64,000 nt of DNA, taken from Eledone cirrhosa (taxonomy: Eukaryota). The notes beneath the pieces are model-generated. The model saw nothing but the letters and a program-made list of their open reading frames with translations, made no database searches and was not told the DNA's origin. The first letter of the stretch is position 1. Each line of letters starts with the position of its first letter. The stretch covers positions 39,866,001-39,930,000 of the forward strand of contig OZ024747.1 in NCBI GenBank assembly GCA_964016885.1, written 5' to 3'. Shown piece by piece: positions 162 through 60,468 of the stretch. Position numbers and translations under genes: made by a program.

Positions 162-354
162 AGGAACGAGTAGGACCCCGACGGCTGAGCTCAAGCCGTT
201 TCGACAGCTAATTCTGGACTAGAATTAGCCGTCGAAACGGCTTGAGCTCAGCTGTGGGGGTCCTACTCGTTCCTATTACCCACTCTACAACACTAAGTAT
301 TGAGTACTTTGGTGCGTTATAGTCCACCTGGTTCCTTACCACATTTCCTTCGTT
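162..354 (+). mobile_element. Short fold-back derivative of the Neptune-like element at 53103-57084 (family A), inserted in (TA)n
   Basis: Inverted arms AGGAACGAGTAGGACCCCGAC.../...GGTCCTACTCGTTCCT plus a one-sided ~80-nt extension; same termini as 53103-57084; TA tracts on both sides. Confidence 0.85.
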
Positions 355-390
355 ATATATATATATATATATATATATATATATACATAT

Positions 391-710
391 ACGTTAACCA
401 TGGTCTTCCTCTTCCAGTGTGTCCATGCAGGGACTCGTACAGGAGCACTGAATGCAATGTCAACTCTGGATGTCGGTGAGCATATCCAGCCAACTTCATT
501 CTCCTCTGTGTCACTTTTGAGCTGACTTTTGGGAGGCTCCCGTACAGCTCTGAGTTTTTCATCCTCAGTGTATACCAAGGTTAAGGTATGTTGATGCCCC
601 AAGGACAGACACTGGTCTGTTGGAGACGCAGGACGTGGCAGCGATAATGAGGGACAGAGACCGCTGGAGAGTACTCGTCCATGGATCTCGGGAATTTTAC
701 TCGCCCTAGA
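391..710. mobile_element. RTE/RTEX-clade LINE 3' fragment with 5' inversion
   Basis: 391-577 (-) encodes SKVTQRRMKLAGYAHRHPEL...GRGRPWLTY; 578-710 (+) carries the downstream 3' end. Matches copies at 10031 and 25475. Confidence 0.75.
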
Positions 711-764
711 GAGATATATACATATATATATATATATATATATATATATATATATATATATATA

Positions 765-1607
765 TGAAAGACGTAAAATAAGAAAATTATAATAGTTAAC
801 TTACTAAAATTTCACTCCAACTAATTAGTTTCTGAAAGGGAATAAACATGGTTTCCAAATGGAAAGCATGGAGAAGCCGTTTCATCATCAGGAAGTCTGT
901 TCTTAGCTAAGTTACCAGGCGATGCGTGGACACAGGGAACTTATACAAAAATAATTCAGTGGATGGAAAAAAGCAAGCGTGGACTAAATTCCAAGACATT
1001 GAAAAAATCACTGCCTACCTGGTCGGTGGCAAATTCAAAAGAATCAATCACGTGACATCGAGGTTAATCAGTGAGGAGTGGGGTGTTAAAAAGACACTAG
1101 CCGAGCCATTACTATGAACTATAGTAGCAGTTTTGGCAAATTTTGGCTCAACAAAATAATTTTGAGATAATTATAAAGAATTAGTATATCATTAGTATAT
1201 CGTGATTGATTCTTTTGAATTTGCCACCGACCAAGTAGGCAGTGATTTTTTCAATGTCTTGGAATTTAGTCCACGCTTGCTTTTTTCCATCCACTGAATT
1301 ATTTTTGTATAAGTTCCCTGTGTCCACGCATCGCCTGGTAACTTAGCTGAGAACAGACTTCTTGATGACGAAACGCCTCCTCCATGCTTTCCATTTGGAA
1401 ACCATGTTTATTCCCTTTCAGAAACTAATTAGTTGGAGTGAAATTTTAGTAAGTAAGTTAATTTTTATAATTTTCTTATTTTACGTCTTTCATATAATTG
1501 TTCTGCATCCCCTTGCATTGAACCACAAAGTTACTAAGACAAAACCTATATATTTGCTAGCATAGGTATGCATCTGTATATATATGTTGGTAGATATACT
1601 AATTCTT
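765..1607 (+). mobile_element. Fold-back non-autonomous element (family B) with HHR, in (TA)n
   Basis: 766-~1070 is inverted against ~1200-1492, followed by a ~115-nt extension; second copy at 36170-36590. Confidence 0.8.
814..896 (-). ncRNA. Type I hammerhead ribozyme (family B)
   Basis: Minus strand: ACUUC-CUGAUGA-UGAAA...UUUCA-GAAA-CUAAUUAG-UU-GGAGU; palindromic stem III. Mirror copy 1357-1439 (+) has C3>U. Confidence 0.65.
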
Positions 1608-1633
1608 TATATATATATATATATATATATATA

Positions 1634-57239: not shown

Positions 57240-57654
57240 AGGAAATCTGATAAAAAGTATATACTAAAATTAAAGTGGATATTAATTAGAAGAGAACAGT
57301 TAGAGAACATAGTTTACATATACATAAAAATTCACATTTTCGTTTATCTCTTTCTCTGCCACTACCTTGGTGGTTTGGTCGTAGTAGCAGCTAAACTAGA
57401 AGTAGGTTTGTCCCCTGTTACTACCTACCGGCTGTTTACTTCAAGTGCAGCAGCAGCAGCAGCAGCAGCAGCAGCAGCAGTATTAGTACTACTACTAGTA
57501 GTAGTAGTAGTAGAAGAAGAAGAAGAAGAAGAAGAAGAAGAAGAAGAAGAAGGTGTGGTAGTAAAAATAGGGGTATAGTAAAGGAGGGAGGAAAAGACTA
57601 AGGAGGAGAAAGAGAAGGAGACGATGGGCGGTGTGTTAGTAATATTATTAGGTG

Positions 57655-58000
57655 TTATATGCTTTGACGCATAAAGTCAATCTGAATTCAAATCCCGCCG
57701 AGGTCAACTTTGCCTTTCATCCTTACGGGTTCGATAAAAATAAAGTACCAGTAATGTACTGGCTAATTGTTGGCCTTGTGCCAAAAAGTAGAAACAATTA
57801 TTATTAGTAGTTGTGTGGATTGGCAGTATCGGTAGAGGGTCGGACGCCATGCTTTGACGCATAGAGTTACGGCCCTTGCCATTCTGAGTTCAAATCCCGC
57901 CGAGGTTAACTTTCATCCTTACGGGGTCGATAAAAATAAAGTACCAGTAATGTACTGGGTAATTGCTAGCCTTGTGCCAAAAGTAGAAACAATTATTAGT
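57655..58000 (+). mobile_element. Two tandem tRNA-derived SINEs
   Basis: B box TTCAAATCCCGCCGAGG, shared core and (ATT)n tails. Confidence 0.85.
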
Positions 58001-59099
58001 AGCAGTAGTAATAGAAGCTGTCCGTGGGACTGACCTTAAAATATATTTATCTTTCTTAGTATTAGAATTAATTTGTCCATTGTTGTTATAGTTGGGTTGT
58101 TGTAGCAGTTTCGTCTGTGGTGGATGCATTTAAACGGGGTTCACATTTTGTGATAAAGTATGATTATTTGCTAATGCGTTGACTGTGGGTAGCGTTGTCT
58201 TTAAATTATATATATATATATATATATATATACATGTGTGTGTGTGTGTGTGTGTGCTTGATTGTATGCATGCACATATACATGTCCGTATAAAAACACA
58301 AACCCACATGCGGTCACAAACACACACATATACACACACACAGACACACACATACACACACACACACAGGCACACACAGGCACACAGATGCACGCACACA
58401 CACACACACACACATATATATATACACACACACACATTCATTATAATAACGCTAAATAGTGAGTCTTGTTACGCTGAAGTTTTTCCTGTTTATCATAGTA
58501 TGTGTGTATGTCTGTCTGTGTGTATGTGCGTGTGTGTACGTGCACGTGCGTGTGTATGTGTATGTATTTGAGTGTATATGTATTCGTGTTTGTATGTCCA
58601 CAGAATGGAATAACACCATACATGTCATATAAACAAACAACTCTAAACTAATCCCAAAACAGTCATTTGCTGATGTCATTTAAACAAACGAGCTTCCTCA
58701 ACGTGGCAAGGGTTATCACTTATTTTTTAGATACTAGACACTTAAATATATTCTTCATGCAAATTATTTCTAGTTGATATGTCTTCTATTTTATATCATG
58801 GAATCATTATATAGTAAGATTAACATAATAGTAAAATGGCCGTCTATCTTTCATCAGATATCACACATAATTGATTAAAAGATACAATCGCAACAAGCGG
58901 CTAAAATAGATTAATGTCTCAAATTTATAACTGATGAAATAGAAAAATACTTGTGTGACATGTGTGCAGTGGAATGTACGAATATATACATTAACAGACA
59001 TACACACGCACACACACACAGTCAGTCGATCGACTTTCGTCAAATCGGACCGAGGAAACAATGCTATTACTATCTATCGTCGCAACTCCAGATAGAAGG

Positions 59100-59202
59100 A
59101 GCAGCGTGAAATAAAGTGTCTTGTTCAAGGACATAACGCATCGAACTCGCAACCTGACGATCGCGAATCCAATTCTCTTACCACTCAGCCACGCGCCTTC
59201 AC
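59100..59202 (-). mobile_element. 5' part of a second tRNA-derived SINE type
   Basis: Minus strand GAAGGCGCGTGGCTGAGTGGTAAGAG...GCGAGTTCGATGC (A and B boxes). Confidence 0.6.
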
Positions 59203-59292
59203 TTACACACACACACACACACACACACACACACACATATATATATATATATATATATATATATATATATATATATATATATATATATATAT

Positions 59293-60468
59293 ATAAACGG
59301 AAAAAATGAAACGATATTTCATTTCCCACTCTTAGTACGGCTGTTACTTAAATATAAGTATGTACACGTACATACATATATGTATACCGACGTACAGTAG
59401 TATGTATATATATATATACATACATGCACACATATATATATGCACGTATGGATTCACCGAACATTTATTATAATGCTCGGTGTGTTTGTAAACAAACATC
59501 CCGTATTAAGCCGTAGTGTCTAGCAACCACCGTTGCTTGTTTGTTCAACACTGACAAAGGAACGCTGTACTAGTTTCAAGCTTGTTAGCTATCGTCAGCA
59601 ACGTATACCTTCCTGCCAGATTGTTGAACGTATATACTTACCTTATGCATATTAACGGCTGAGTAGCCCAATTTGCATATCGAGTGGGTTAATCGGCCGG
59701 GTGCACCGAAAACGATAAACGGAAAAAATGAAACGATGTTTCATTTCCCACTCTTAGTACGGCTGTTACTTAAATATAAGTATGTACACGTACATACATA
59801 TATGTATACCGACGTACAGTAGTATGTATATATATATATACATGCACACATATATATATATGCACGTATGGATTAATATGGACACTACGGCTTAATACGG
59901 GATGTTTGTTTACAAACACACCGAGCATTATAATAAATGTTCGGTGAATCCATACGTGCATATATATATGTGTGCATGTATGTATATATATATATACATA
60001 CTACTGTACGTCGGTATACATATATGTATGTACGTGTACATACTTATATTTAAGTAACAGCCGTACTAAGAGTGGGAAATGAAATATCGTTTCATTTTTT
60101 CCGTTTATCGTTTTCGGTGCACCCGGCCGATTAACCCACTCGATATGCAAATTGGGCTACTCAGCCGTTAATATGCATAAGGTAAGTATATACGTTCAAC
60201 AATCTGGCAGGAAGGTATACGTTGCTGACGATAGCTAACAAGCTTGAAACTAGTACAACGTTCCTTTGTCAGTGTTGAACAAACGAGCAACGGTGGTTGC
60301 TAGACACTACGGCTTAATACGGGATGTTTGTTTACAAACACACCGAGCATTATAATAAATGTTCGGTGAATCCATACGTGCATATATATAAGTGTGCATG
60401 TATGTATATATATATATACATACTACTGTACGTCGGTATACATATATGTATGTACGTGTACATACTTA
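59293..60468. mobile_element. Retrozyme-like array (family K), 422-bp unit, two opposed ~1.4-mers
   Basis: Period 59293>59715 and 59881>60303; HHRs at 59562-59604 (-) and 60219-60261 (+); TA flanks. Confidence 0.85.
60219..60261 (+). ncRNA. Type I HHR of family K
   Basis: ACGUUG-CUGACGA-uAGCU aaca AGCUu-GAAA-CUAG-UA-CAACGU. Confidence 0.85.

Follow-up and report, generated by a model that had tools for sequence, protein, structure and literature searches.

We analyzed a 64,000-nucleotide (nt) stretch of Eledone cirrhosa DNA (assembly GCA_964016885.1, contig OZ024747.1, positions 39,866,001 to 39,930,000; hereafter the window), which carries numerous fold-back insertions of Penelope type lying between TA microsatellites. 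By self-comparison of the window and with a detector for TA-flanked inverted arms, one layout, namely (TA)n, inverted arm, direct arm plus extension, (TA)n, was found in ten families within the window. The family letters A to M were assigned in this analysis, and the two outer ends are called S (short) and L (long) in the sense of the RNA, with the extension between them referred to as the tail. The layout is real, and it is a known Penelope signature. The first-pass annotation of the window had put it in at least ten families, which agrees with our count, and had given a tail range of ~45 to 210 nt, of which only the lower part stood. Tails measured 79-80 nt in A (4 copies), 116 nt in B (2 copies), 88 nt in C, 79 nt in D, 68-72 nt in F (2 copies), 98 nt in G, 48 nt in H, about 135 nt in J, about 56 nt in K and 61 nt in M. 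The case of ~210 nt was a neighboring element: the family E palindrome (12804..13330) has no tail of its own here (the usual E tail is 60 nt), and the adjoining 13331..13545 (+) is a separate element of a further family, whose two ends (13484 and 13545) are separated by 61 nt and whose 5' boundary at 13335 recurs; it is present elsewhere, behind other sequence, without that arm.

Family A is represented by mini-copies at 163..353 (+), with an inverted short arm, a center near 221, a direct arm and an 80-nt tail at 274-353, at 2951..3144 (-), with its tail on the left side, and at 10582..10782 (+), and by a long fold-back at 53104..57083 (-), which has its tail at 53104-53183 and the GIY-YIG-coding 3' part on both arms (55148-55867, +; 54404-55135, -). 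A small hairpin (hairpin 1) follows the short end at 282..305 (+; ACTC-stem-TT-GAGT, 8 nt past that end), 10712-10734 and 53152-53175. The non-coding family B occupies 766..1607 (+), with a hammerhead-like core read by eye, its tail at 1492-1607 and hairpin 1 at 1500..1523 (+; GTTC-TGCA..TGCA-TT-GAAC; the predicted fold was obtained, z -2.6), and 36170..36590 (+), with the hairpin at 36483-36506. Family C has a mini-copy at 2744..2926 (+; hairpin 1 at 2849-2892) and a copy with non-overlapping arms at 44183..44277 (+), consisting of the short arm and the final 48 nt of the tail. Single insertions represent family D (mini-copy, 12566..12750, +; one hammerhead-like core per arm by eye, hairpin 1 at about 12688-12706) and family G (fold-back, 36659..38389, -; hairpin at 36722-36746), and family K has a fold-back at 4527..4680 (+; hairpin at 4629-4648 with a TTCG loop) and a related copy at 15746-15912 (-). 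The giant family J fold-back (27396..35357, -) has its tail on the left, a long-loop hairpin at 27445-27525, the 3' part of an open reading frame (ORF) at 31087-32187 (-) and an inserted F copy at 33122..33842 (+; ends 72 nt apart); the 3' region of this 8-kb insertion comprises kilobases of degenerate (CATA/TA) microsatellite on both arms, and its right arm has lost the coding part. The shared hairpin is absent from families E, F, H and M, of which F forms a multimer of an ~466-nt putative hammerhead repeat at 13595..15640 (+; inverted arm, ends 68 nt apart), H a fold-back with an internal tandem copy at 49531..50515 (+), and M a hammerhead-like multimer with an inverted arm at 59296..60466. 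Two insertions resemble elements of the Hydra clade: a one-armed ORF 3' fragment at 1634..2684 (+), with TA tracts on both sides and no hairpin found at its end, and a 5'-truncated, frameshifted copy running from reverse transcriptase to endonuclease at 21919..25445 (-), with its long end at 21919 and hairpin 1 at about 21964-21988.

Sampling covered 1,264,000 bases in five blocks: one of 464 kb that contains the window and its surroundings, and four of 200 kb, of which one was positioned at an A copy already known. Genome-wide match counts refer to 3.0 Gb in 1,796 contigs of AT-microsatellite-rich DNA, and arm-pairing counts rest on samples. Among the 103 contiguous TA-flanked fold-backs in the sampled bases, 93 were asymmetric, and the 10 symmetric ones were mostly inner pieces of multimers, together with one element resembling those with terminal inverted repeats and one L+L copy of G. 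Target-site duplications were readable in 2 of the 103 insertions (shuffled mean, 0.14), and no correlation was found between the TA tract lengths on the left and right.

A Neptune protein had been proposed as the enzyme. Many copies of family A are nearly identical, and some of these contain a 784-codon open frame, in 3,531-bp head-to-tail units; the first ATG lies 173 nt past S, and L is S+80. Such units, together with inverted arms, occurred in 10/10 long A insertions. A 717-amino-acid ORF of family A contains YRDD and VIY..YIG, representing a reverse transcriptase together with a GIY-YIG endonuclease at the C terminus, and its protein has over 2,000 relatives. The structure model of this protein had a pLDDT (predicted local distance difference test) of 87, with TERT as the top three Foldseek matches; Pfam and PDB sequence searches returned no family for it, and no relatives of the element were found in viral contigs. 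RWR stands at position 37 and DKT at 117, and among aligned proteins an RWK-type motif occurred in 30/33, DKT in 32/33, a CxCx5C linker in 33/33, two cysteines inside GIY-YIG in 0/27, and CxxC and CxH near the end in 23/33. Neither of the Neptune features, a CX2-5CxxC linker and a CCHH motif whose two cysteines stand between GIY and YIG, is present in the family A protein, so that the Neptune label was dropped. Insertion into (TA)n is as in the Hydra clade, and the single ORF (TERT-related reverse transcriptase plus GIY-YIG), head-to-tail partial tandems, inverted truncated copy and tail are those of an endonuclease-bearing Penelope-like element. Judged by diagnostic sequence motifs, the autonomous element belongs to the Hydra clade of Penelope-like elements. 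An autonomous form exists in family C as well, with a 713-codon open frame elsewhere in the genome. Family A looks recently active, given the low divergence of tandem units inside one arm (about 0.45 substitutions/kb), and in 4/11 of its long insertions (window copy included) the stopping points of both arms fall no more than about 190 nt from the same position in the unit.

The ends of these families are fixed well beyond the window. A 20-mer at the short end of family A had 35,147 exact matches genome-wide (control, 0), of which 16,713 continue into TATATA, and motif matches numbered 37,345 for C, 7,517 for B and 5,458 for F, the F data beyond the sampled blocks being match counts. The first 100 A matches included 35 divergent pairs, in which one S occurred in 33, two S in none and no S in 2, and this one-S pairing differs from independent choice with p=1.7e-8. 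By local alignment, S was paired with L in 40/44 A insertions (a single S+S was cut by a block edge) and in 20/23 C insertions; the same pairing was found in 10/10 multi-kilobase A insertions, which had been chosen beforehand as two-armed or tandem, and, in a by-eye count of distinct two-armed B insertions with both outer ends visible, in 9/10, the other being S plus an internal end. Raw reads were taken from three Illumina restriction-site-associated DNA (RAD) runs of another study under the same species label. For family A, loosely defined (TA)n ends were seen as S+TAT in 2,600-2,925 reads and as L+TAT in 7,398-10,149 reads; for family C, loose TA ends were seen at S, and opposite-strand joints recurred in all three runs, most of them starting at one restriction site and a few from 3-6 places. 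A restriction site beside the fold-back centers of family A hides these centers in RAD reads. Recurring end points had been noted on first reading, and the raw reads of these three other samples show fixed ends for families A and C. The TA homology at S was most often 3 nt (57/105 in a larger, A-enriched set).

Tails of unrelated families open with a common hairpin, consisting of RYTC, an upper stem, a 2-nt bulge beginning with T, and GARY (in RNA, RYUC-stem-UN bulge-GARY). The hairpin is duplicated, and both insertion ends lie about 6-10 nt 5' of one of its copies, as seen at both ends in four families; in read-through copies of A, C, B and a fourth family, hairpin 2 begins at L +6 to +8, and a fifth family shows both hairpins. 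A strict version of the motif started at most 20 nt from S in 53/93 asymmetric fold-backs, compared with 1 and 0 in two controls, and the offset from S to the hairpin was 6-9 nt in 84/103 of the larger, A-enriched set. No Rfam family was found for the hairpin in seven loci.

The same arrangement was found in relatives from metagenomes. From 78 loci of related ORFs (hosts unknown), 42 non-redundant loci with enough upstream sequence were kept and 36 were dropped; these relatives share 37-43% protein identity. Within 170 nt before the ATG, 38/42 had at least one copy of the motif and 26/42 at least two, while the corresponding numbers were 5 and 1 for the reverse complement, at most 4 and 0 inside ORFs, and 2.3 and 0.4 as shuffle means, the controls overall reaching at most 7 and 3. 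The copies are spaced 55-92 nt, at about -95 to -135 and -35 to -70 relative to the ATG, and usually lie downstream of a hammerhead core, with ACT after them. With sequence-only anchors and a 2-nt bulge, the first upper pair, formed by the base after GCTC and the third base before GAGC, was Watson-Crick in 62/62 distinct cases (42 C-G and 20 U-A), compared with 0, 0, 7 and 12 for other bulge lengths and a permutation mean of 35 (maximum, 48); deeper pairs were weaker (38/56 and 26/32). In metagenome contigs, second copies of the terminal repeat ended 0-8 nt before a hairpin in 11/15 cases (chance, about 5% each), a count that excludes 3 more ends, all at one locus lacking a strict hairpin. Among the published elements in the available parts of PMC8557442, read by eye, Hydra-1_Ajap has both hairpins at its start and a 3' end that breaks off immediately ahead of the first, hairpin 1 closes Hydra-2_Ajap and Hydra-2_Amil, and Hydra-1_Crog has a variant, while none was clearly seen in the parts shown of Hydra-1_Obim and Hydra-1_Amil.

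These features point, with fair probability in our judgment, to insertions of the Hydra clade and its dependants in which the S and L ends are set by twin hairpins, each predicted to hold one reverse transcriptase; the hairpin is likely the anchor of the enzyme. The claim of the first-pass annotation that two priming events occur at two fixed RNA positions, one per target strand, is supported by the near-invariant S+L pairing, by arms that do not overlap and, from a Poseidon element, by initiation in vitro at two internal sites on both strands. In the proposed scheme, the RNA would carry two copies of the bulged hairpin, each holding one copy of the protein, and each reverse transcriptase would prime a few bases upstream of its hairpin, using one of the two 3' ends left by a cut in a (TA)n tract. 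Both target 3' ends would pair with UAU-like bases and be extended inward on the uncleaved RNA, and the two cDNAs would then be joined head to head with little or no microhomology, by template jump or end joining. Mini-copies would likely arise by priming at the hairpin pair near the RNA 5' end, followed by run-off, and long or multi-unit copies by priming at a downstream pair.

Several observations weigh against this reading. The strict motif is absent from 40/93 asymmetric fold-backs and 10/18 multi-copy families, so the layout does not require the hairpin; there are one L+L copy of G and one L+L-like copy of A; and 4/15 metagenome ends have no hairpin nearby. Part of the first-pair covariation follows relatedness and the distinction between hairpins 1 and 2. 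The minimum-energy fold has the stem and bulge in only 28/68 metagenome cases and does not show hairpin 1 of A or D, and folding leaves the strand unsettled, with 10 G-U versus 7 A-C pairs (4 versus 1 here) and the sense strand more stable in only 17/62. In addition, the motif was defined on the tails of this genome, the independent tests being the metagenome and published sets only.

The alternative that survives best accepts two primings and takes the twin motif for a signal at another level, such as an endonuclease signal in duplex or single-stranded DNA, a promoter, or a translation or packaging element, with AU-rich bases setting the starts. We regard it as unlikely, yet it draws on several facts: the fixed distances of the motif before the ATG, the inconclusive strand test, the same layout in families without the motif, and the Drosophila virilis endonuclease, which needed tail sequence for recognition (cited in the available text of PMC11167929). 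On the other side, family B is non-coding, with no ORF, and still has the two hairpins at unchanged offsets, the ends track the hairpins in the metagenome relatives, and the motif has an internal spacer of variable length (about 6 to 70 nt), more in keeping with a folded strand than with duplex DNA.

A second alternative, which we hold to be very improbable, is a single priming at L, after which the cDNA would snap back and copy itself to a fixed point S, with the hairpin as a stop signal; self-priming has been proposed from palindromic junctions in PMC3846280, as far as its available text goes. It would account for the likeness of arms within an insertion, since in 10 young long A insertions the divergence was 0.51 substitutions/kb between opposite arms, 0.45 between the tandem units of one arm and 3.67 from insertion to insertion, and none of 17 one-arm variants recurred in another insertion. 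Opposite arms being nearly identical and sharing private variants, both arms come from one source locus, whether through a single RNA, two RNAs of that locus or subsequent conversion. That both arms of short copies start at about the same place also suits a snap-back. However, L has the same UAU-plus-hairpin context as S, and in 7/40 A insertions the S arm extends 16-401 nt beyond the L arm on the 5' side. Moreover, some arms have no overlap at all, namely those of 4 clear cases among the 23 C insertions (long arms of 28, 38, 48 and 61 nt), the B insertion at locus L376 and an A insertion in block C2; arms sharing no sequence cannot be copies of each other, and a snap-back is contradicted for these. 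Assembly or library artifacts, the remaining alternative, are extremely improbable, for although long palindromes beside microsatellites are error-prone, our checks used short reads only and many C joints come from reads with a single start in restriction-site libraries, three other samples show the fixed asymmetric ends in their raw Illumina reads, the same joints turn up again from library to library (with 3-6 starts for some), and neither the S+L rule nor private variants on both arms would be expected.

Returning to the reading with two primed ends, the centers of the fold-backs bear on where each cDNA would stop. Centers in family A mostly have 0-2 nt of overlap. Variable depth at the center had been described for the window, and this did not hold for short copies, whose centers cluster: 25/40 A short arms start 50-61 nt before S, and in 9/23 C insertions an arm begins at a shared wall, -155 to -159 from L. 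In short copies, family A has its wall at an A that precedes S by 61 nt (TCATTT), and C has it some 70 nt ahead of S (TTAGTT); the two sequences are initiator-like by consensus. For C and D, the hammerhead as read by eye also has its 5' edge at the wall. That the wall is the RNA 5' end is a tentative proposal, which we hold with slightly more doubt than belief, and it may alternatively be a structural block at the ribozyme. Two other explanations of the centers and short copies were rejected: centers at the ribozyme cleavage site, as the predicted site in A lies 17 nt before S and arms run through it, and a single amplified family resembling miniature inverted-repeat transposable elements (MITEs), as the centers differ copy by copy.

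In the family B variants that end in TC, runs of (TC)7-14 stand at 7 long ends and a longer run at one more (loci L376-L398), versus 1-2 TC units at 12/12 internal junctions, including those of the same insertions (Fisher p=0.008, in a test that includes 8 unexpanded terminal rows, 2 of them mis-parsed centers). The flank opposite the TC-bearing end had no TC run in 5/7 shown. Such runs could reflect either a stutter of the enzyme as it initiates or slippage afterwards, next to the TA tract. Telomerase adds simple repeats, and stuttering at initiation would be akin to this; if it is true, part of the microsatellite load of this genome could have been written by the element. For the broadest form of the proposal, in which a clade-wide duplicated bulged RNA hairpin anchors the telomerase-related reverse transcriptase and one RNA serves two enzymes at opposite (TA)n break ends, possibly with initiation stutter, we see the case for and against as evenly balanced.

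Hammerhead-like motifs accompany many of these elements. A regular expression for the hammerhead core matched 29/42 metagenome relatives, and the terminal repeat of family A has a hammerhead-like fold (locus L212:1709-1800; window 56980-57070) with, as read by eye, a UUGAGAA (U3-A8) core; its loop III is palindromic, and its loop II is long and contains the center wall. A U3-A8-type hammerhead variant is named in the available part of PMC4209133. Rfam gave no hammerhead match in the A locus L212 or in six relatives; the HH9 hits in family F were below the gathering score, and the cores of B and M are by-eye readings only. Taking non-LTR (long terminal repeat) retrozymes as non-coding tandem repeats of 150-1000 nt with a type I hammerhead, the non-coding tandem units here are 526 nt in B and about 466 nt in arrays in F. 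Family F forms long arrays on the sequence labeled C1. The earlier suggestion that non-coding hammerhead elements use the same insertion route holds for B, which has the same ends and hairpins (its hairpin 2 with a mismatched first pair), and is left in doubt by F and M, which have the layout without the shared hairpin, so that their partner enzyme may differ. By eye, no repeated hairpin was found at the F and M ends. F and M share another tail hairpin (AAAYGAAA..TTTCRTTT) and similar sequence past the distal end.

The remaining features of the window fall outside the pattern. The segment at 386..721 is the 3' end of a long interspersed nuclear element (LINE) with an inverted 5' part, as in twin priming; further LINE 3' fragments ending at TA tracts lie at 10023-10385 and 25430-25904, and a zf-RVT domain fragment of a LINE-type element lies at 47546-48079 (-). 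The segment at 3969-4373 has symmetric terminal inverted repeats between TA runs and an inner copy at 4124-4162, and is probably a small DNA-transposon derivative. A short repeat resembling short interspersed nuclear elements is present in many copies (14941-15136, inside the F multimer, 39207-39398, 40495-42955, 48455-48778 and 57659-58012), a repeat family without an inverted arm lies in (TA)n or (CATA)n (7686-7963, 8485-9040 and 35399-36033), and a minisatellite array with a 13-bp unit spans about 900 bp (51760-52683). The many microRNA matches that Rfam listed for the window lie below the gathering score and reflect palindromes and microsatellites.

How Penelope-like elements pick internal starts and build insertions was set as a next task by Craig et al. 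2021 (PMC8557442, available text). If the present reading is true, two enzymes per RNA would explain the tail, the inverted arms and the tens of thousands of mini-copies together. A two-copy RNA motif of ~20 nt that predicts both ends across distant animals lends itself to a simple mutational test, and it would represent a cis-signal for non-coding passengers and, within telomerase's sister group, a minimal anchor made of RNA. The motif also gives annotation a means of recognizing Hydra elements as well as their mini-copies, the latter being open to confusion with MITEs or microRNA hairpins. The duplicated hairpin predicting both ends in Hydra elements appears to be undescribed: the available portion of the main text of PMC8557442 mentions no hairpin, stem-loop or bulge, that of its supplement no hairpin or stem-loop, and no description of the twin hairpin was found in the open literature, a search that leaves subscription papers (Arkhipova 2006), Repbase and figure S2C of PMC11167929 uncovered.

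LINE-1 twin priming offers a familiar parallel, in which both target ends prime on one RNA, the second site is not fixed and the arms do not overlap. In the eel element UnaL2, a 3' RNA hairpin is reportedly the recognition signal of the reverse transcriptase, lying upstream of the start and copied. In contrast to both, the hairpin here lies 3' of its own start and is omitted from that arm. As far as the available texts go, an inverted copy, a one-sided tail and a bias for (TA)n were already described in PMC8557442 and PMC3846280, where the Penelope insertion unit, with its pseudo-LTR, adjacent inverted 5'-truncated copy, tail at one end and partial tandems, has the same layout; its tail is optional and often one-sided, whereas the S+L arrangement here is near-obligate and the arms come from one source locus. 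The Hydra clade of PMC8557442, known from octopus, coral, sea cucumber and copepod, shares the RWK/R and DKT motifs, the CxCx5C linker, the lack of a cysteine pair inside GIY-YIG, the CxxC and CxH motifs, the (TA)n targets and, as a putative feature here, a hammerhead in the terminal repeat, and differs in its tails (30-40 nt there, 48-135 nt here). Non-LTR retrozymes, treated as dependants in the available parts of PMC7229834 and bioRxiv 10.64898/2026.07.22.740005, differ in that inverted arms with paired fixed ends occur here; relative to them, B retains the Hydra twin hairpin as a candidate cis-signal, and F and M do not. The closest experimental counterpart is the Poseidon element PAc of Anolis (PMC11167929, Frangieh et al. 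2024, available parts), for which two internal start sites on both strands were obtained in vitro and a dimer is predicted; as proposed here, two internal starts define the tail, the RNA template is uncleaved, and both strands are cut and extended at AT-rich DNA. PAc belongs to a different clade, and its starts lie in an AC-rich stem-loop inside the ORF, with no target homology, whereas the starts described here precede the ATG, have about 3 nt of TA homology and each lie 5' of a repeated hairpin.

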